A stretch of DNA of 64,000 nt from Acetivibrionales bacterium (GTDB taxonomy: Bacteria > Bacillota > Clostridia > Acetivibrionales > DTU013). A program made the position numbers and the translations under genes. The number at the start of each line of letters is the position of its first letter. Position 1 is the first letter of the stretch. The DNA lies in contig JBMNKL010000001.1 in NCBI GenBank assembly GCA_050952225.1, positions 494,589 to 558,588 on the forward strand, written 5' to 3'. Shown here piece after piece: positions 3,853 through 37,117 of the stretch. The notes under the pieces were generated by a model, which worked only from the letters and a program-made list of their open reading frames with translations, searched no databases and was not told where the DNA came from.

Positions 3853-5139
3853 TCCATTGGTTATGCGCTTGCTATTGCTTTAGGACGAAATGCTGTTGGT
3901 ATACACGCAAGCGATATTGTGGAGATTAACAAGACAAAAGAAGAGACATTTGTGAGTATAATAAACTGTGATCTGGAAAGATACTTTGCTCCTAAAGTAG
4001 AGCAAAAAGATTTGCTGGCATCAACTAAGCCTAATACAGGGAATCTCAACTTGTTTATTGATGGAATGAGAATAGAAGGGGCAGAAGTAATAAATGGTTC
4101 TGCATATGCAGATATCAAAAAAATAGCTAAGGCATTAAGATATAAGATTTCTGAAGATGATGATCAAATATCATTATATTATTTTGATGAAAATGGAGCT
4201 AAATTCACAATATCATACAAAAAGGAAGGCTGGCTTAAAAGAAATGGAAGTCTAATTGTTAAGGTAAGAGAGCTTGCTGAGTTTAGAGGTTACGGAGATA
4301 CTATAAGTTGGTGGCATGACAAAACGAATAAGCTTAATGTTACTGTTAATCCAAGCATGAAGTATGCACCAATAAAAGTTATAAGACAAGAAAACGTTGT
4401 AGAAATAGCCGCATACATAAATTTTATAGGCGATTCAAAAGAGTTAATGCCTTCAACAGCATTCTCTTACGCAGAAATTGCTGCTGCAGGTATTGAAGTA
4501 GATTGGGCTGGGAACTATTCGGTAGACGGAAAGAGGATTAGCTTAACTACAAAAGTTTATAGCCACAATGCTAGTCAGAATAATATAATACAGAAAGCTG
4601 AATTAGGTTCTTCTACAAAACAAAAGTATATAGACTTCGAAATAAAAGATGAAGTTGGTAGGTCGCGTCAAATGGACGGGAATTTGATTTCTATAGTAGG
4701 GGATTATCTTATAGGAGATAGATATAAGTCTGGTGATCCAATATATGATAACTGGTCAATTGCAAATCCCGGTAAGGTAACACTCTATACAAAGACAAAA
4801 TATAGTAATGTCAAGTATGATCCTAATGATCCTTCGACATATAAAACATATACGCAAAGGGAACTTAGTAATGTTGCTTCTCATGAATTTGGGCACTTAC
4901 TAGGACTTGGTGATGCTTATGGAGAAAAAGGATATCGGTATGCTGCACCAGAATATTATATCTTGCAAGATGGAAGTATTTTGTGGATGCCGTCCGACGA
5001 TAAAATGAGAAGTTCACAAGGAAATGTTAGCGATATAGATATAATGTTCATGCTTAAAGCTTGGGAGATGAATATATTTCAGCCATTCCCAGAGACATCC
5101 AGTTACCAATTTTCGCCGGGTTCTACAAGTACCCAATAA
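3427..5139 (+). CDS. Orphan RHS C-terminal cassette 2 with a metzincin-like zinc-metallopeptidase domain (putative toxin)
   Basis: Frame is open from 3385. It encodes GEDDNPLSLNLYTYCFNDPIRFIDPTGH (a partial core end only), then a payload containing HEFGHLLGLGD at 4882-4914. There is no ATG or RBS upstream; the ORF track start at 3604 is an internal GTG. The region from about 3900 onward is visibly AT-rich. Confidence 0.7.
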   Translation, partial: GEDDNPLSLNLYTYCFNDPIRFIDPTGHDPYDKIIANARTQSQINWIINEINKQKEIWFVEEQGAGKDQTSWTGAQTEANRRAETLRQQLIQLESGNADTQRLIKDDSKGIAGAWEGYQLSVTARLAEANPGRDYSDMIRRQSIGYALAIALGRNAVGIHASDIVEINKTKEETFVSIINCDLERYFAPKVEQKDLLASTKPNTGNLNLFIDGMRIEGAEVINGSAYADIKKIAKALRYKISEDDDQISLYYFDENGAKFTISYKKEGWLKRNGSLIVKVRELAEFRGYGDTISWWHDKTNKLNVTVNPSMKYAPIKVIRQENVVEIAAYINFIGDSKELMPSTAFSYAEIAAAGIEVDWAGNYSVDGKRISLTTKVYSHNASQNNIIQKAELGSSTKQKYIDFEIKDEVGRSRQMDGNLISIVGDYLIGDRYKSGDPIYDNWSIANPGKVTLYTKTKYSNVKYDPNDPSTYKTYTQRELSNVASHEFGHLLGLGDAYGEKGYRYAAPEYYILQDGSILWMPSDDKMRSSQGNVSDIDIMFMLKAWEMNIFQPFPETSSYQFSPGSTSTQ

Positions 5140-5198
5140 TTGTTTATAAAAATATTGAATATATTTGTAAAGTATTTCTTACATGGAGGGATAAATAA

Positions 5199-5708
5199 GT
5201 GAATAAAAGGACCGTAGTATTAATTCTAATTATAATATCTATTTTGGCAGTGGCATTGGCAAATAGTATTGTGGGGGTTTACAATCTAGTATCATATAAG
5301 TACTTAATGCGTGTATTGCCGGTAATCGGGATAATATTTCTGATCCTTGGCGTGATATTATTTGTATTAAAAAAAGTGAAATATATTATGATTATTTCTG
5401 CATTTTTTATTTTGGCATTATATATCTCAGACATTATTAGTGTAATGTTTATTAATAACCAACGTCAAAATATTTTTAACGATGGTACTCTAATTGCCGG
5501 TGCAATTGAAAGATATTATGAAGATAACAATAAGTATCCAAAGGATTTAGATGAGTTAATTCCAAAATATATTGACAGTATCCCTAAGATAAAAACTACA
5601 TACGATGAGGGAGACTTCACATATTACATTACTGAGGGCGGAAAATCCTACTTTTTAGGTTTTGAAAACTATTATTATGATGGAATTGGTTGGATTGAGG
5701 CAGAATAA
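5199..5708 (+). CDS. Small multi-pass membrane protein; candidate cognate immunity protein for cassette 2
   Basis: 169 aa with three hydrophobic helices, then a soluble tail (GAIERYYEDNNKYPKDLDELIPKYIDSIP). GTG start preceded by GGAGGG. It sits immediately downstream of the toxin cassette and shares its low GC. Confidence 0.45.
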   Translation: MNKRTVVLILIIISILAVALANSIVGVYNLVSYKYLMRVLPVIGIIFLILGVILFVLKKVKYIMIISAFFILALYISDIISVMFINNQRQNIFNDGTLIAGAIERYYEDNNKYPKDLDELIPKYIDSIPKIKTTYDEGDFTYYITEGGKSYFLGFENYYYDGIGWIEAE

Positions 5709-5803
5709 TAGTTAAAAAGCTATTTAAAATTATATTGATACGGTGACGATACATAGGGAGGTTCATTGGTGAGAATAAACAAATAGTGGAATGAACTTTG
5801 CTA

Positions 5804-5832
5804 TTGACTTTATGTTCATTCACTGCTACAAT
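5804..5832 (+). promoter_or_regulatory. Sigma-A-type promoter candidate for the tRNA-Met/tRNA-Glu pair
   Basis: TTGACT (5804-5809), 17-nt spacer, TACAAT (5827-5832), about 60 nt upstream of the tRNA. Confidence 0.5.
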
Positions 5833-5895
5833 AGAAAAGCGCGCGGCGGCGTCTTTATAATGCATGAGCGAAACGGGCGCTTTCTCGCGATAGAT

Positions 5896-5972
5896 GGCGG
5901 CGTAGCTCAGGTGGCTAGAGCATGCGGTTCATACCCGCAGTGTCGTTGGTTCAAATCCGACCGCCGCTACCA
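5896..5972 (+). tRNA. tRNA-Met (anticodon CAT), elongator-like, CCA encoded
   Basis: Cloverleaf read by eye: GGCGGCG acceptor stem, TAGCTCAGGTGGCTAGAGC D-arm, TTCATAC anticodon loop, GGTTCAAATCC T-arm, 3' CCA. Confidence 0.9.
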
Positions 5973-5985
5973 TAACGAATTATCT

Positions 5986-6060
5986 GGCCCATTGGTCAAG
6001 CGGTTAAGACACCGCCCTTTCACGGCGGCGACAGGGGTTCGATTCCCCTATGGGTCACCA
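5986..6060 (+). tRNA. tRNA-Glu (anticodon TTC), CCA encoded
   Basis: GGCCCAT acceptor stem, CTTTCAC anticodon loop, GGTTCGATTCC T-arm, CCA. Confidence 0.9.
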
Positions 6061-6153: not shown

Positions 6154-6392
6154 ATAAAACAATACGGATAAATGGCTGAATGCTTCATAGTTAATGGAGC
6201 GTTTTTTATTTTCCTATCAGGCCTTTCTATTAAAGATTTTTGTCCTGCAGGAATAATCCTGTCAAGCTGACGGTTTTAACCCTGGGAACAACAGGATAAT
6301 TATTATCGTCAATACAGTTAGTGTTTTCCATTATCAAAATTAATAAGAGCCGGATATCCTGCTGCGATGCCGGGCTTGTTAATTGTGTCTGA

Positions 6393-8961
6393 ATGGAGGG
6401 AACGAGTGTGGGCAGACGTGTAAAGATAACAGTTATTCTTGCCGTTGTGGCGATAATAGCCTTGGCTATTCCCCTTGGAGTATTCTCCCGGGAAACCGTA
6501 CCGGGTATCATGACTGCCGCAGACGAAGGACCGGAAGATCAGAACTGCGGCATAAACAATGACGGGAGCGGCAGAAGCGGCGATACGGACATTATACGCG
6601 AAAGGCTTAATGAAAGCGTCATTTTATACGTTGGAAGCCCGGTCGCGTATGTAAAAGGAGTCGAAACACGTATAGACCCGGGCAATATCGAAGTCACCCC
6701 TGTTATTAGCGATAATGTGGAGATGGTGCCTGTCAGGTTTATTGCGGAAAGCCTGGGAGGCAGCGTCCGGTGGGATCAGGACAGCCTTTCCGCCACTGTC
6801 ATTCTGGACGGCAGGAGCTATAAATTTACGCAGGGCAGCAGCATTATGCTGGCGGGCGGTTCAAGTTATCCCCTCGGCGCAGAGGTATGGGCGTACAAGG
6901 GAAGGACTTTTGTACCGCTGGATAAATTCGTTAAGGCGCTTGGCAAAAAGGTTTTTTACGACAGGGGCCTTATTATTATAAGTGATGATGAAGTTGCTCT
7001 CGACACTGAAAAAGACAAGGAACTTATAAGCGAGTGGATTGCGAAATTGAGTTATCTCCCCGCAGTGGGCTCCCGCGATAAACTGCTGAGCCTGCTGGAA
7101 GAGGGGCAGAAAAGAGGAACTGGTGATTATATAGAGATAATATTGCCCCAGGTGGATACGGGTATATCCGTGGAGAAAGAAATAGCAGCCTGGGAAGCGG
7201 AAGGTTCATCGACGCCGGGCATTGCAAACCAGGCGGCTAAGGTTGCGGAAAGTCCGGCTGCGGATATGGCGGTGGCAGATCCATCCGGTCGGGAGCAGGA
7301 TTATTCCACAACCAATGTCCAGGTTCAAGGCGTTGATGAGGGAGATATAGTAAAGACGGACGGCAATTATATATACCAGGTCAGCAAAAGAAGGGTGGTT
7401 ATCGCAAAAGTCGATAATCCGGACAACATGGAAATTGCCGGTATCCTGGATTACACCGATAAAAACCTGACTCCGCAGGAGCTGTACCTGCACGATGAGA
7501 AGTTGGTTGTCATAGGTTCTTCGAAAGCGTATTTCCCAATATATAAAACGAAAGACGGCGTCCGGACCGAAATATATCCTTCGCCGCGTTATTCGCAAAA
7601 CAGCGTTAAGTTATTGATATATGACATTTCGGACAAGAAAAATGCCAGGCTGGTCCGGGAGGTTGAACTGGAGGGGAAGTTACGTATCGTCAAGAAAGAT
7701 CGGTCCGGCGGTTTATCTTGTAGCCAATGATTATATTAACTATTACCGCATTCAGGACAACGTTCCGGATGATGAGCCGAATATTACGCCATACTACCGG
7801 GATACTGCGGAAAAGGATGAATATAAAAGCATAGGCTACGATTCGATACGCTATTTCCCTGGAGCGATACATGATAATTACATGATTGTTGCCGGAATTG
7901 ATGTTGACGGGAACGAGCCTGCCAATGTTTCCACGTACTTGGGGGCAGGCCAGAATATCTATGCGTCGCCGGAAAACCTGTATGTGGCTGTGACAAGCTA
8001 TTCCCGGATTTATTCCAAAAGGGGCTATGAAGAAAAAACACAAATATATAAATTCGGCATGAAAGATGCGAAACTTACATACTTATGCAAGGGCGAGGTG
8101 CCCGGCATCATACTTAACCAGTTTTCCATGGATGAGTACGGCGGTAGCTTCCGCATGGCGACTACAAAGGGCAGCATATGGGCTGCGGATGAGAGAATTT
8201 CCAAGAACTGCTTATACGTAACGGACAGCATGCTTTCCATTACGGGCAGTATAGAAGACATGGCGCCCGGCGAAAGGATTTACTCTGTCCGCTTCATGGG
8301 CGACAGGGCATATGTAGTGACATTCAAGACGGTAGACCCGCTCTTTGTGATTGACCTGAAAGACCCGAAAAAGCCGGCTATCCTGGGAGCTTTAAAGATA
8401 CCGGGGTACAGCGATTACCTCCATCCTTACGACGAAAACCACATTATAGGCTTCGGGAAGGATACTGTTGAGATAAAAGGCCAGGCTTATTACCAGGGTA
8501 TGAAGGCTGCGCTGTTTGATGTGACCGATGTAAGCAACCCGGTGCAAAAGTTTGCCGAAATAATCGGAGACAGGGGTACGGATTCCGAGCTTCTCAGCAA
8601 CCACAAGGCGCTTCTTTTCTCGAAAGAGAAGAACCTGCTGGCATTCCCCGTGACATTGATGGAAATCAAGGACGCCGGTGAAACGGGAATGAATGCACTT
8701 GAATACGGAGAATTCACGTTCCAGGGCGCCCTGGTGTATAGCCTGGATCTTGAAAACGGGTTCAAGTTAAGGGGCAGGATAACCCACCTTTCCGGCGATG
8801 ATTATTTAAAAGCTGGAAGGTACTGGTACGACAGTGACAAGAATATCAGGAGAATCATCTATATAGGCGATAATTTGTTTACCCTTTCAAATAGCATGAT
8901 CAAGGCAAATGCATTGGAGGATTTGGCAGAGAAGGGCAGCGTTGCGATACCGCAGGCTTGA
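6393..8961 (+). pseudogene. Secreted beta-propeller-domain protein (COG4880-like) with a copper-amine-oxidase-N-like domain; one frameshift near 7675
   Basis: Signal anchor (ILAVVAIIALAI). A VPVRFIAESLGGSVRWDQDSLSATVILDG stalk-type domain. ORFs 6393-7730 and 7621-8961 overlap in adjacent frames, and the sense reading ...VELEG/SYVSSRKIGPAVYLVANDY joins at a GGGGAA run. Confidence 0.7.
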
Positions 8962-9044: not shown

Positions 9045-9912
9045 ATGAGAAAAAGGCCCAGTCGCGGTATGACTGCCATTGCCGTAATATTGATCATACT
9101 TAACCTTTCCCAGGTTGCCCTGATTGCCGCAATATTGCTGTATATAACAGGAATGGGCGATGATCCGGGCCTGCTTGCGAATCCATGGGTAATTGCTTTA
9201 CTGCTGGTTATACTCGCGGTTGTTATCATAAACAGCCTGGCGGCCCTTAGGAGCAGGAGCAGCACGCTGCGCTCAATCTACCGGTTCCGGATGCTTGAAG
9301 ACACTCTTTCAAGGCTGGAAACGCTAAACAACACCTTGCGGGCGCAAAGGCATGATTTTCTGAATCACCTGCAGGTTGTTTACTCTCTCATGGAAATGGA
9401 AGAATACCACGTGGCTGCCGAGTATATTGAAAAAGTATACGAGGATATACAGAAGGTCAGCAGAATCCTGAAGACATCAAATGCCGCCGTAAACGCGCTG
9501 CTCCAGGCAAAGCTGCTGACTTGCGAAGACCGTGGCATCGAGGTCGGGTTAAACGTGACGACCCAATTGAAAAACCTGAAGATACCCTCATGGGAGTTCT
9601 GCAGGGTTTTGGGAAACCTGATTGACAACGCAATTTACGCACTTCGGGATAAAGAAGGCGTTAAATCGGTTAAAATCGATCTTTATGAAGACTTAAAATA
9701 TTATTATTTCAGGATATCTGATAATGGTGTCCCGATTCCTGAAGAGCTTCAATAAAAAGATATTCGAAGCCGGGTTTACCACCAAGGGCGGCGAAGGAGA
9801 AGGGATGGGATTGCCGATAAGCGCCGGGATTATGGAAAAATACGGGGGAAGCATTACTTTATCGTGCGAAGGAGAGTACAAGGTTTTTGAAGGAAAGGTG
9901 CCGCGGTGTTGA
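9045..9912 (+). pseudogene. Small membrane sensor histidine kinase (SpoOB-type helical H-box plus GHKL ATPase), frameshift near 9750
   Basis: Two or three N-terminal TM helices, H-box RAQRHDFLNHLQVV, N-box LGNLIDNAIYA. The G-boxes (GFTTKGGEGEGMGL) lie in the next frame (ORF 9724-9912). Confidence 0.75.
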
Positions 9913-10155
9913 TGGTTTTACAGGCGGATGAGGGAGCCGGGCAGTTAATAAATCCCTGGGATGATGATTTAACAGTCAGTTAAAAAGACATTTCAGCGCT
10001 GCAAGTGTATAATATGCGTTATGTGCATTTAATTTAGGCCTTAGCAATTATATAATATCATTGGATAGATATTGTTCAAGGCAGCATCCTTGAAGCACAA
10101 GGTGATGGATTTAGCCTTAAGCGAAACGGATTTTCCTGAACGGGAGGTGCTATGA

Positions 10156-10659
10156 GTGAATATAGGAGCGTTATTTGTCGGTTATAACTGGATACCGATA
10201 CTTTTCCTGATCGCGGGGATTGTATTTATCGTAATTGAAATGTTGCAACCGGGTTTCGGAGCGCCGGGGATTATCGGAATAGTGTTGCTGTTGCTGGGGA
10301 TTGTCCTGTATGCCAGGAGTTTGCTCGAGGCCCTGATAATGATTATTATATTGCTTGCGATACTGGGGGTGGCGCTTACGCTGATCCTGCAGTCGGCTTC
10401 AAAGGGGCGCCTGGCCAGAAGCCTTGTTTTAAATGATACACTGGACAACAATGTTAGTTATCCGGCGATAGACGACATGAGCTACTTCCTGGGAAGCGAA
10501 GGGGAAACCATTACTGCCCTGAGGCCTTCCGGGGTTGCGGATTTCAGCGGTGTGAAGCTGGATGTCGTCTCGGAAGGGGAATACATTCCTAAAAATACTA
10601 CGGTTATTATCAGCAAGATTGAAGGAACCAAGATCATTGTAAGGCAAAAACCGGAATAA
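10156..10659 (+). CDS. NfeD-family membrane protein
   Basis: Hydrophobic N-terminal half and a C-terminal OB-like tail (ITALRPSGVADFSGVKLDVVSEGEYIPKNTTVIISKIEG). Sits in the classic position upstream of floA. Confidence 0.8.
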   Translation: MNIGALFVGYNWIPILFLIAGIVFIVIEMLQPGFGAPGIIGIVLLLLGIVLYARSLLEALIMIIILLAILGVALTLILQSASKGRLARSLVLNDTLDNNVSYPAIDDMSYFLGSEGETITALRPSGVADFSGVKLDVVSEGEYIPKNTTVIISKIEGTKIIVRQKPE

Positions 10660-10702
10660 GCGCGTATAAAGGTCAAATACCTTATGAAAGGAGACTTTTT
10701 CA

Positions 10703-11698
10703 ATGGAAATTTTAATACCTGTGTTTATTGTAATCCTGGCATTTATTTTCGTTATATTGTTTTTCACATTTATACCGGTGGGGCTATGGATATCGGCTTT
10801 TGCGGCGGGAGTGCGCGTCGGCATTTTCACGCTGGTGGGCATGAGACTAAGGAGGGTCAGCCCCAGCAAGATTATTCTCCCGCTCATAAAAGCGTCAAAA
10901 GCGGGACTGGACGTCAATGTCAACCAACTGGAGGCGCATCATCTCGCCGGGGGCAATGTTGACAAGGTTGTAAATGCGTTAATTGCGGCACATAGGGCAA
11001 ACATGGATTTGCAGTTTGTCAGGGCCGCGGCGATAGACCTGGCGGGAAGGGATGTCCTTGAAGCAGTTAAGATGAGCGTAAATCCAAGGGTGATAGAAAC
11101 ACCTAATATCTCGGCGGTTGCTAAAGACGGGATTGAGCTTTTGGTCAAAGCGAGGGTTACGGTCAGGGCAAACCTGGACAGGTTGATTGGCGGAGCAGGA
11201 GAGGCTACTGTTATTGCCAGGGTCGGGGAAGGCATCGTAACGACCGTGGGGAGTTCGGAATCACACACAGATGTGCTTGAAAACCCTGACATGATATCCC
11301 AGACAGTCCTTAACAAGGGACTTGATTCAGGGACTGCATTTGAAATATTGTCCATAGACATAGCGGATGTGGATGTGGGAAGGAACATCGGCGCTCAACT
11401 TATGACCCTGCAGGCGGAGGCCGACAAAAATATAGCCCAGGCAAAAGCCGAAGAAAGGCGCGCCATGGCAGTGGCGAAAGAGCAGGAAATGAAAGCGCTT
11501 GTGCAGGAGATGCGCGCGAGGGTCGTGGAAGCGGAAGCGGAGGTGCCGAAGGCTATGGCGGCCGCTCTCAGGGAAGGAAAGCTTGGCGTGATGGATTATT
11601 ACGGCATGCAGAATTTGAATGCCGACACCCAGATGCGCAGCACCATATCAAAAATTGGCGGCAAAGCGGATAATGACGAAAATATTATAAAGAAGTAG
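10703..11698 (+). CDS. floA: Flotillin-like protein FloA (YqfA/UPF0365 family, SPFH domain)
   Basis: N-terminal hairpin anchor, then [23 protein letters not shown]..., the [19 protein letters not shown] motif block and an Ala/Glu-rich coiled-coil tail. Confidence 0.85.
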
Positions 11699-12199
11699 AA
11701 TAGAAAGGATATTATCATGCCTAAAGATAGTTTTGGTTATTCCGGGTTTAATCCGGCGCCGTGGCCGATGCCGGTAAGTCCGCCGCAAGGGCAGGGGCAA
11801 AAGCACGGCAGGGGTTGTCGCAGGAGTCAAGGCCGAGGATGGCGGCAAATCCGGCGCCGAGGTCGGGGCCTAATATGACGGCAGGGCAGGCGAAAAGATG
11901 CCAATAGGGACGGCGCCAATGGTGCGGGGTCCATGAAGGCATCGGGGATACCTCCGGGATGACAGCATCCGGGATATCTTCAAGGATCGTCGGTGGGCCG
12001 GATGGCGCCGGGAACGGCAGCGGAACCGGCGCCGGGATATGTCACGGAAGTTGCGCAAAAAAGTACGGCAGGAAGCAAAATGACGGGGCCTGTGCTTGAT
12101 TTCTCCCCAGGCAGCCTGCTTAACGGCATTATATTATCTGAAATACTTGGAAAGCCCAAGTGTTTGCAAAAAACGTTCGGAAAACGATGGTGATGGCTG

Positions 12200-12940
12200 T
12201 TGGATATTAAAGTACTGATAGCTGACGATGATAGCGGCATGCGGACGGTATTAAAAAAAGCTGTTGAGAAAGTAGAAGGCTTCAAGGTGACAGGAGAAGC
12301 GGAGGACGGCGAAGCTGTCCTTCTTTTATTTGAGAGGCACCGCCCGGACGTGGTGTTCCTGGACGTGGAAATGCCGCATGTTACAGGTATAGAATGCGCA
12401 AAAAGCATTGTGGATATTGAGCCAAAAACTATCATTATTTTTGTAACCGCCCATGAAGAGTACATGCCGGAGGCATTTGACGTTTACGCTTTCGATTACC
12501 TGGTAAAGCCTTTCAAGGTAAGCAGGCTTATCAAAACGCTTGAACGGATAAAAAGGACCAGCGCCGAAAAACCGCGTGGCAACGGCGCAAGTTCCGCCGA
12601 AACACAAGGAACTCTTAACAAGCTTATGGTCCGTAACAAGGAAGGGGTAAGCCTTGTAGATATGTACGAAATCATATTGATACAACGCGAGGACAGGAGT
12701 ACGGTCATATATACAAAAAATGAGCGTTTTGTAACATCCGAAAGCCTCGGCAGTCTTGAAAAAAGGCTTGACGGCAGATCATTCTTCAGGTGCCACAAAT
12801 CCTATATCATTAACCTTAACGCTGTCAGCAAAATATACCCTTACGGCCGGTGGACATACATCGTGAAACTGAAAGGTATCGATAAAGACGCCCTCATAAC
12901 ACAAGACAAATATGATGAATTAAAAAGGATTTTCTCATAA
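12200..12940 (+). CDS. LytTR-family response regulator (REC plus LytTR DNA-binding domain)
   Basis: VLIADDD...VVFLDVEMP...YLVKP receiver motifs. C-terminal LytTR block (FFRCHKSYIINLNAVSKI). TTG start 6 nt after the upstream segment. Confidence 0.85.
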   Translation: MDIKVLIADDDSGMRTVLKKAVEKVEGFKVTGEAEDGEAVLLLFERHRPDVVFLDVEMPHVTGIECAKSIVDIEPKTIIIFVTAHEEYMPEAFDVYAFDYLVKPFKVSRLIKTLERIKRTSAEKPRGNGASSAETQGTLNKLMVRNKEGVSLVDMYEIILIQREDRSTVIYTKNERFVTSESLGSLEKRLDGRSFFRCHKSYIINLNAVSKIYPYGRWTYIVKLKGIDKDALITQDKYDELKRIFS

Positions 12941-12989
12941 AAGGAATATGGTGAAGCGGCAACCGGGAATTTTGCAAAATGCCCGGCTC

Positions 12990-14170: not shown

Positions 14171-14449
14171 TTAACGGGATGCGATATTGTTGAGAGTTGC
14201 GAAAAAAGCCCGGCGGCTTGCTATTTCGGCTACCTTTTCCTCACCGGGTAATAGCTCTACCTTGGCAAAACCCTTAAGTTCCTTTTCAGGCATAATTGCT
14301 GAAACTCCGGGTGCTTTCACATATAACTGTATGATTTCCTTTCCTTTTACAGGACCGATGTTCTGGAATTTAGCCACGGCATCGATAATTGTATTCTGGT
14401 TAGACGGCAGGTTAAGATTAACGCGATCAGAACCTTCATTTTTGTTCAC
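14171..14449 (-). pseudogene. Remnant of a GH3 beta-glucosidase C-terminal (FnIII-like) domain
   Basis: EIIQLYVKAPG...PEKELKGFAKVELLPGEEKV is the conserved GH3 C-terminal block. Only about 90 codons are left and no catalytic domains are present. Confidence 0.6.
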
Positions 14450-14662: not shown

Positions 14663-15374
14663 ATGGACAAACTAAAAAACAAGCTTGCAGATTTATTAGC
14701 ATACCCTGTCAGGTTTTATCAGAGCCTTTCCGATAAGAGGGCTACGCTGTTTGCGGGGATAATCCTGGTTGGCGCCATTGATCTTCTTCTGCCGGACATA
14801 GCCGCGGTATTTGACACCTTTTTTTCAGGCAAGCCGACGGATGATATTCTCTTTAACGCCTTTATGATGGTTTTCGTCATATTGGCGGCGGGAATAATTG
14901 ACGTTGTCTTTCTCAGTGTGCCGCTTTTTGATTTTTTTAAGTTTTTGAAGAAGAGGGAGATAGCAATGGAGACATTCCGGAGACGGCGCGTTTCATTCGC
15001 TTACGTCTTCGCTCCCGCCAGGGCCGGACAGCTGGGAAAGCTGGGACCAAAAGCCTTCTCTTGTGAAAGTAATGAAGGTGTATATTGTTTCACACTTCAT
15101 CATTATCCCTGTTACAACATTCGTTTATTTCGCTTTTGCCCGCAATATTACCGAGAGCAGCCCTGCCTGGATGCAAAACCTGTACCTGCTTATTTTTGTA
15201 CTGACTTTCATATGGGCCGCGGCGATAATTACGAGAGGCATAAACGCCGTCTTCCGCTTCAACCCTTTGTTTAAAAGGCTGACATATATTATAGTGCTGA
15301 TATGGAACTTTATCTTTTCAATGGTGTTTAGCATGCAAATCATGAAATGGCTGCTGATGCTCTTCAGGCGATAG
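14663..15374 (+). pseudogene. Polytopic membrane protein (Yip1-like topology), frameshift around 14960-15060
   Basis: ORFs 14663-15274 and 15063-15374 overlap in different frames. The hydrophobic-helix reading switches frame; the second half of ORF 1 is Arg/Cys-rich nonsense. Confidence 0.5.
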
Positions 15375-36820: not shown

Positions 36821-36934
36821 AGGCTTGGATATAAATGCCGTTGAAAATGAAGTGAAAATATCCACGCAAAAATTTGTCCATGGTATTGACATGGACAGTG
36901 ATTTGATGCTAGTATGTGTGCAGTAACTGAATAT

Positions 36935-37117
36935 AATCTTCAGGGCAGGGTGAAATTCCCGACCGGCGGTGATGCGGCAAATGAGCCGTTAGCCCGCGAG
37001 CGTAAGCAGACCCGGTGAGATTCCGGGGCCGACAGTATAGTCTGGATGGGAGAAGATTTTTATTTGCTTTTGGGTAGCATCTATTCCCTGGGATTATATT
37101 CCGGGGAATTTTATTTT
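36935..37117 (+). promoter_or_regulatory. FMN riboswitch (RFN element) with terminator expression platform
   Basis: Aptamer 36935-37058: CTTCAGGGCAGGGTGAAATTCCCGACCGGCGGT...AGCCCGCGAGC...GGTGAGATTCCGGGGCCGACAGTATAGTCTGGATGGGAGAAGAT matches the RFN consensus. Terminator ATTCCCTGG/CCGGGGAAT plus TTTTATTTT at 37083-37117. TTGACA-N18-TAGTAT promoter lies upstream. Confidence 0.95.
37083..37117 (+). terminator. Terminator stem of the FMN riboswitch expression platform
   Basis: ATTCCCTGG / CCGGGGAAT (9 bp including one G-U pair), 9-nt loop, then TTTTATTTT. Confidence 0.8.

Follow-up and report, generated by a model that had tools for sequence, protein, structure and literature searches.

A sensor kinase and a LytTR response regulator flank, and apparently control, the nfeD-floA-yqfB flotillin operon in one part of Clostridia

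A 64,000-nucleotide (nt) stretch of DNA from an Acetivibrionales bacterium (GenBank assembly GCA_050952225.1, contig JBMNKL010000001.1, positions 494,589 to 558,588; this whole stretch is called the window here), itself part of a metagenome-assembled genome (MAG), carries on its + strand, at 9045-12940, five co-directional elements: a sensor histidine kinase gene, nfeD, floA, a segment homologous to yqfB, and a gene for a response regulator with a receiver (REC) and a LytTR DNA-binding domain. Comparison of related loci places the kinase upstream of the flotillin operon nfeD-floA-yqfB, and the REC-LytTR regulator at its 3' end, in one part of Clostridia, and we think it reasonably probable that the two form a dedicated two-component module built around this operon and autoregulated together with it. 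The core operon is already known from Bacillus, and both LytTR two-component systems and kinases of the intramembrane-sensing kind are familiar. A kinase and a LytTR regulator that flank, and apparently control, a flotillin operon make up an arrangement not described in the searchable literature, where a search for flotillin or NfeD with LytTR or response regulators in Clostridia found no relevant paper. The functional statements made below are predictions from sequence and comparison.

The stimuli and purpose of bacterial flotillins are still debated, and next to nothing is known of their regulation outside Bacillus, where sigma-W controls them. A kinase and regulator wired to nfeD-floA-yqfB would offer an experimental handle, making the signals that call for flotillin directly testable. 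It would also assign a predicted regulon and a predicted binding site to large unstudied families, those of the small kinases (>2,500 clusters) and of the LytTR regulators (>3,400), including very abundant gut lineages, and the little-known YqfB is placed firmly in the flotillin operon across Bacillota.

Conservation of the five-gene arrangement

All five elements lie at the positions and on the strand given in an earlier note on this DNA, made from its letters and open reading frames (ORFs), which had proposed a membrane-microdomain or membrane-stress circuit at this place. The gaps between them are, in order from kinase to regulator, 243, 43, 18 and 6 nt; the note had put the first of these at 244 nt and had the 18- and 6-nt gaps exactly.

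Two samples of 80 loci, both made up of best matches and not drawn at random, were compared: species loci with the closest FloA proteins, and metagenomic loci with relatives of the regulator, 51-68% identical. The arrangement is not peculiar to one genome, the outcome that the earlier note had set against its own proposal: about 20 of the 80 FloA-closest loci have kinase-nfeD-floA-yqfB-regulator, the carriers including Ruminiclostridium papyrosolvens C7, Clostridium puniceum DSM 2619, C. folliculivorans, C. thailandense, C. manihotivorum and several MAGs. Of 19 yqfB-regulator junctions compared, 17 have a spacing of -19 to +18 nt, and such tight or overlapping junctions fit the co-transcription of the regulator with floA-yqfB that the note had supposed. 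Seen from the regulator side, floA lies upstream wherever a metagenomic locus has 1.7 kb or more of sequence before the regulator, L093 being the one exception, and nfeD lies upstream too where the sequence reaches far enough. Look-ups from the kinase side returned the full five-gene cluster in both cases tried, Clostridium drakei (CP020953.1, 3841530-3852390) and another complete genome, of 4.7 Mb. Since the arrangement is thus conserved as seen from the FloA, regulator and kinase sides, it is old and maintained. A quick neighbour-joining tree of FloA distributes the regulator-carrying loci over three clostridial clades, with none in Negativicutes or Peptococcaceae-like lineages.

The core operon itself is more widely distributed than the regulatory genes. 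In the window nfeD (10156-10659, +; Pfam NfeD and NfeD_membrane) is of the short form, with a membrane domain and a C-terminal NfeD domain and no protease domain, and it lies 43 nt from floA; the two genes are neighbours in nearly all the 80 FloA-closest loci. The floA gene (10703-11698, +; Pfam FloA, 542 bits) encodes a flotillin-like protein of the YqfA/SPFH5 type that is 73-93% identical across the 80 species loci. The segment that follows (11717-12193, +), which the earlier note placed correctly and left unnamed, proves to be a broken homologue of yqfB (PF27722): its start codon, C-terminal motif LLNGIILSEILGKPKC and basic tail are kept and its middle is broken. In the closest relative, a Bacillota MAG whose FloA is 93% identical (L001, used here as the reference for frameshifts), a single ORF of 173 amino acids (aa) occupies this position, and an ORF of 67-204 aa is found there in every related locus. 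The products have a variable N-terminal part of low complexity and a conserved C-terminus (D-F-S, LLxGIIxSEILGKPK, basic tail); a profile of the C-terminal motif matches directly after floA in about 65 of the 80 loci, and does so in the window with 63.6 bits. Neither Pfam nor NCBIfam models matched this middle gene, the library copies being older than PF27722; a database search with its product returned 108 small "hypothetical" proteins, many tagged PF27722, and gene-context annotation names the family YqfB. It also directly follows floA in loci of Negativicutes, Desulfosporosinus and Acetivibrio that have neither kinase nor regulator.

Homology and conserved order make nfeD-floA-yqfB the clostridial equivalent of Bacillus subtilis yqeZ-yqfA-yqfB. 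The latter is a core sigma-W, membrane- and envelope-stress operon (PMC3498285) of the SPFH5-NfeD class, whose YqeZ has a ClpP-like protease domain (PMC2636767). The two thus share an NfeD-family gene, FloA (SPFH5) and YqfB (PF27722) in identical order; they differ in that the clostridial NfeD is short, that flanking kinase and LytTR control is proposed for it, and that no sigma-W promoter was found. A site of the sigma-W (ECF) type, TGAAAC-N16-CGTA, is absent upstream of nfeD in the window and occurs once (L069) among the relatives; sigma-W-type control of nfeD in loci without the two-component genes was considered and dropped, with one candidate only and no general pattern.

The sensor kinase and the response regulator

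The kinase gene (9045-9912, +; Pfam SPOB_a, the DHp domain, and HATPase_c) had been described in the earlier note as a minimal histidine kinase of the intramembrane type; the type stands, the single ORF does not, since the gene is frameshifted in the window. Hydropathy gives two N-terminal hydrophobic helices, residues 10-34 and residues 43-67, with a loop of only some 10 residues between them, which makes the protein a sensor of the intramembrane type. The related proteins are about 285-290 aa long, and an intact single ORF of about 285 aa is present in 19 of 19 related genome loci. In 24 relatives the catalytic boxes are kept: TLRaQRHDFmNHLQVV, the N box GNLIDNAIYA, and GEGMGLAI (H, N and G boxes). 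The family is large, with 2,543 database clusters at E ≤ 1e-20, the best 120 of them all of about 285 aa. The closest solved relative of the kinase core is the AgrC kinase module (6e52); among NCBIfam models it scores highest against DcuS and MalK, yet far below their cut-offs. No accessory membrane or transporter gene of the LiaF or BceAB type was found next to the kinase, whose neighbours are nfeD, floA and yqfB.

The regulator gene (12200-12940, +) has a TTG start 6 nt past the yqfB stop. Its product joins a REC domain (Pfam Response_reg, 95 bits) to a LytTR domain, and residues D9, D10, D55 and T83 of the receiver are invariant in 78 unique relatives. Its best scores against models of the NCBIfam type are with BtsR and LytR, below their cut-offs, and its family exceeds 3,400 database clusters. 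With a full receiver domain and conserved Asp residues, it is not a LytTR protein of the HdrRM/BrsRM type, which has no receiver domain and a membrane inhibitor partner; that identity was ruled out.

As partners the two proteins look compatible: an AgrC-like core fits a LytTR partner, and the catalytic boxes of the one and the phospho-acceptor residues of the other are kept. Their adjacency in about 30 loci suggests that this kinase may phosphorylate this regulator.

A conserved element upstream of nfeD

The search for LytTR-type repeats upstream of 10156 that the earlier note had suggested was positive, and revealed a conserved two-box element whose presence tracks that of the regulator. Although the kinase-nfeD spacer is 113-243 nt long and unalignable overall, 20 of 20 kinase-carrying loci share within it GACAnTTcag, about 9 nt, and (a/g)TGTATnnTTnag, with an invariant GACA-N16-GTAT spacing. 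In the window these correspond to box 1, GACATTTCAGCG (9987-9998, +), which could be aligned in all 20 loci, and box 2, GTATAATATGCGT (10007-10019, +), set in a 21-nt register with it; we propose them as the distal and proximal LytTR half-sites. The consensus reads GACAnTTCAG and GTATnnTTnAG in this register, with a -10 box at a fixed distance downstream. In the window that box is TATAAT (10051-10056, +), the predicted -10 hexamer of a regulator-dependent nfeD promoter that has no good -35. The alignment shows a third conserved block, TTATGTGCATTTAAT (10019-10033, +), over the -35 zone of the predicted promoter; this TTATGTATTAC-like block is kept only in kinase-carrying, low-GC (guanine plus cytosine) loci; a third half-site is one possible role for it, a -35/UP-like element another.

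The 18 non-redundant sites were combined in a 40-nt matrix, which finds one match in each of the 20 kinase-carrying loci (score 24.5-39), 110-175 nt upstream of nfeD, and a single match in the entire window (9981-10020, score 34). Among 61 loci that had first been scored as free of the system it matches only L011 and L017. The former does carry the regulator, its kinase being cut off by the contig end; the element is thus absent upstream of nfeD in 59 of 60 regulator-free loci. It is found in regulator-carrying loci from GC 0.33 to 0.66, including high-GC loci that lack the kinase. L017, a Clostridiales MAG, has the element before nfeD-floA-yqfB (6292-8546), with neither regulator nor kinase over 2 kb of downstream sequence; the gene that follows is Fic-like and on the other strand.

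The repeat is clearer in the kinase-less loci, for example GACAATTCAGAC-GAAAAAAT-GTATCTTTGAGAC (N8 linker) with TGCTATACT 28 nt later. Over 36 non-redundant elements, identity between the boxes peaks at the 21-nt offset, at 4.97 of 11 positions as against 3.0-3.5 at offsets of 19, 20, 22 and 23. Of the 36, 35 have a TAnnnT hexamer at column 64-65, counted from box 1; it reads TGnTAnnnT in 8 of 8 high-GC loci. LytTR sites are described as two repeats of 9-11 nt lying 11-13 nt apart, and the YpdB site GGCATTTCAT resembles box 1, GACATTTCAG (PMC4847170); ComE sites are 9-bp repeats with a 12-mer linker (PMC4005675). The element conforms to the LytTR rule, with two repeats in a 21-nt register upstream of a promoter. 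With its repeats at about -76 to -44, a good or extended -10 and no -35, the region has the geometry of an activator-dependent LytTR promoter, and the co-occurrence of element and regulator suggests that the regulator may bind the boxes.

Box 1 begins 4-130 nt past the kinase stop (median about 20; 4-50 nt in most loci), so close that in most loci there is no room for a terminator after the kinase; in the window, none was detected between kinase and nfeD.

Loci without the kinase

In the regulator-side sample the kinase is found upstream only in the nine most similar relatives (L081-L089), complete in eight and cut by the contig end in L083. The remaining loci are mostly of high GC, many from human-gut assemblies, and have no kinase within 5 kb; in one of them there is none within 10 kb either. 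Their gene order is UDG, nfeD, sometimes two extra secreted-protein genes, floA, yqfB and regulator. This group is very abundant, one cluster at 90% identity having 4,880 member sequences. Its regulators retain D9, D10, D55 and T83, so that a kinase encoded elsewhere is to be expected in these genomes. Regulator-only operons in many genomes, like the wide distribution of nfeD-floA-yqfB free of the system, the frameshift in the kinase and the identity of yqfB, had been overlooked in the earlier note.

Two variations on the gene order were seen. In L143-type loci (L143, 1002-5744; group L094-L158) two paralogous genes for secreted or lipoprotein-like products lie between nfeD and floA. In L165 (7749-10756) two DUF975 membrane-protein genes directly follow the regulator; they were considered as substitute sensors and dropped, having no relatives in other kinase-less loci.

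Proposed circuit

In the circuit that we propose, phosphorylated regulator would bind the two imperfect direct repeats as a tandem dimer, at about -76 to -44, and so activate an nfeD promoter that has a -10 but no -35 box. NfeD, FloA, YqfB and the regulator itself would then rise together, in positive feedback; both activation and feedback are suggested by the geometry of the sequence and by the co-occurrence of element and regulator. The kinase, lying outside the induced promoter, would not be amplified, and read-through from its own promoter probably provides basal transcription of the operon. In the weakest step of the scheme, the kinase would sense the state of the membrane or the assembly of NfeD, FloA and YqfB and thereby set off a membrane-stress response. 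A membrane-state signal is the most economical guess, given a kinase without an extracellular domain, targets that organize membranes, and Bacillus orthologues controlled by an envelope-stress sigma factor; the kinase-regulator pair may thus fill the role that sigma-W has for yqeZ-yqfA-yqfB in Bacillus. A further elaboration, which we regard as speculative and improbable, is that the kinase reads the assembly state of the NfeD/FloA/YqfB complex, rather than a free chemical or a bulk property of the membrane. This would close a feedback loop with the flotillin scaffold as both output and co-sensor, the kinase-less gut form being fed by another input.

Several observations weigh against the proposed circuit. 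The 21-nt repeat signal is moderate, with about 5 of 11-12 positions matching as against about 3 at other offsets, and in the window box 2 matches box 1 poorly, the match being stronger in relatives. The bases of boxes 1 and 2 also fit an ordinary sigma-A promoter, TTGaCA-17 nt-TATAAT (likewise in L119 and L103). L017 has the element without a nearby regulator, and many genomes have regulator and boxes without an adjacent kinase, so that the pairing of kinase and regulator rests on adjacency in a subset of them. Among relatives the kinase shows little conservation in its transmembrane part, which offers no clue to a particular ligand or partner; this variability speaks neither for nor against sensing by way of NfeD, FloA or YqfB. 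In the window itself, kinase and yqfB are disrupted.

Alternative explanations

These disruptions raise the possibility that the circuit is being lost in this organism, through real frameshifts in kinase and yqfB that leave the regulator orphaned. The kinase is split by a +1 frameshift, between G1 and G2, into ORFs 9045-9755 and 9724-9912; the cause is one extra A at about 9751, the window reading CTTCAATAAAAAG where L001 has CTTC-ATAAAAAG. The yqfB segment has stops in all three frames, with about six frame changes within 300 nt (11780-11990), a density far above that of the flanking genes; nfeD, floA, the regulator and a neighbouring mannose-6-phosphate isomerase gene are intact. Such a loss nevertheless seems rather unlikely. 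Further, unrelated genes nearby are split as well, among them a gene at 6393-8961, divided in two ORFs by an additional G in a G-run near 7673. The frameshifts in this gene and in the kinase are both +1 changes at short base runs, within flanks 96-97% identical to L001, and the C-terminal piece of the kinase is still 91% identical at the protein level. The source being a MAG with a contig of 889 kb, assembly indels are the likely cause, and for kinase and yqfB together we consider assembly errors more likely than real inactivation, although they do not fully explain the six or so changes in yqfB. The conserved motif of yqfB lies within the last 63-66 codons (11993 or 12002 to 12193), a part that is intact, and the ORF at 12002-12193, annotated at NCBI as a 63-aa hypothetical protein, matches the size of natural short members of the family (54-67 aa). 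Within 11780-11990 the local frame of each stretch still resembles the L001 protein, as could be seen in error-prone, GC-rich, low-complexity sequence or in real decay of a dispensable N-terminal part.

Were boxes 1 and 2 the -35 and -10 of the nfeD promoter, the regulator would be an autorepressor or promoter switch, its binding occluding the promoter and turning the operon down. The best promoter that a consensus scan finds in the region does lie there (AAGACA 9985-9990, 17 nt, TATAAT 10008-10013; 10 of 12 matches), and several distant loci have TTGTCA or TTGCCA, 17 nt and TATAAT at the equivalent place. We nevertheless hold autorepression to be improbable: conservation reaches bases that sigma-A ignores, the TTCAG after GACA and the TTnAGAC after GTAT, 21 nt apart, and the second -10, at its fixed distance downstream, extended by TGn in high-GC genomes and lacking a -35, makes up the usual layout of an activator-dependent LytTR promoter. 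The regulator might instead be a passenger, co-expressed with floA and acting on targets elsewhere, the element being a plain operon promoter or the site of another factor. L017, as well as the extent of the scan for further sites, which took in 64 kb from this genome and 10-20 kb from the others, leave some place for such a reading; the form of the element, which fits LytTR sites, and its occurrence with the regulator across so wide a range of GC, against its absence from nearly all regulator-free loci, make it very doubtful. We give equally little credence to a pairing that is not cognate, in which the kinase serves another regulator or stands alone and the regulator is phosphorylated by a kinase encoded elsewhere. 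This could account for the large group of loci in which the regulator keeps its Asp residues while no kinase is encoded within 5-10 kb, and for the core's best NCBIfam scores, with kinases of the DcuS/MalK type whose usual partners are not LytTR proteins; on the other hand, a LytTR regulator closes the same cluster in all of the roughly 30 loci that have this kinase family, no second regulator gene is present in these clusters, and the closest solved kinase, AgrC, is a LytTR partner. Activation by a cognate pair remains the reading we prefer.

Comparison with known systems

In the LiaFSR-liaIH system of Bacillus, as in other intramembrane-sensing kinases, the input domain consists of two transmembrane helices and nothing more. 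LiaFSR acts mainly on the adjacent operon, which protects or organizes the membrane, and the induced promoter reads into the regulatory genes; its proteins are of the HisKA_3 and NarL families. The clostridial module resembles it in its minimal two-helix kinase, in the adjacent membrane-protein operon as proposed target and in a promoter that would read into the regulatory gene; it differs in having a SPOB_a/AgrC-like kinase with a LytTR regulator, no LiaF-like or ABC-transporter accessory gene, and an SPFH/NfeD rather than a PspA/LiaI target. With other domain families and no accessory gene, identity with a LiaFSR or Bce system was ruled out.

With AgrC/AgrA and ComD/ComE, in which an HPK10 kinase and a LytTR regulator are autoregulated, the module shares a REC-LytTR regulator and an AgrC-like kinase core, as well as two imperfect direct repeats of about 21-nt periodicity, a weak -35 and a regulator gene inside the proposed induced operon. 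Unlike them it has two helices instead of 6-7, a kinase gene upstream of the regulated promoter, and a flotillin target. Peptide quorum sensing of the Agr/Com type was ruled out, there being two helices and no pheromone, processing or export genes in the window or in related loci. Likeness to the LytS/LytTR systems BtsS/BtsR and YpdA/YpdB lies in the regulator, which scores best against BtsR and LytR, and in the YpdB site; the kinase, in contrast, lacks 5TM-Lyt, GAF and His_kinase (PF06580) domains, and the targets are not carbon-starvation transporters.

A functional link between flotillin and sensor kinases is also known from B. subtilis, where an interaction of FloA with the kinase PhoR has been reported (PMC4409396) and where FloA and FloT scaffold PhoR and ResE. 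The Bacillus flotillin assists kinases encoded elsewhere, whereas here kinase and regulator flank, and apparently control, the flotillin operon.

Other features of the window

Downstream of the regulator gene the mannose-6-phosphate isomerase gene converges on it, leaving a 49-nt gap (12941-12989) with the inverted repeat CCGGG (12963-12967) / CCCGG (12982-12986). In L001 a gene for a membrane GGDEF diguanylate cyclase (9330-10151) stands between these two genes; the window is without it. Upstream of the kinase, the product of the split gene at 6393-8961 is large and secreted and combines an N-terminal copper-amine-oxidase domain with a beta-propeller; in L001 the gene is a single ORF of 847 aa. 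Further downstream, a lone ORF of 92 aa on the - strand (14171-14449) shows similarity only to the Fn3-like domain usual at the C-terminus of GH3 beta-glucosidases and is probably a gene remnant, and two same-strand ORFs of 203 and 103 aa (14663-15374), overlapping by 210 nt, have hydrophobic products with no Pfam match and may be a frameshifted membrane-protein gene. The window also contains a region of unusually low GC (0.35) at 4001-6000, an FMN riboswitch at 36932-37061 (124 bits), and two tRNA clusters, Met-Glu (5896-6060) and Val-Asp-Phe-Gly-Cys (61767-62419).

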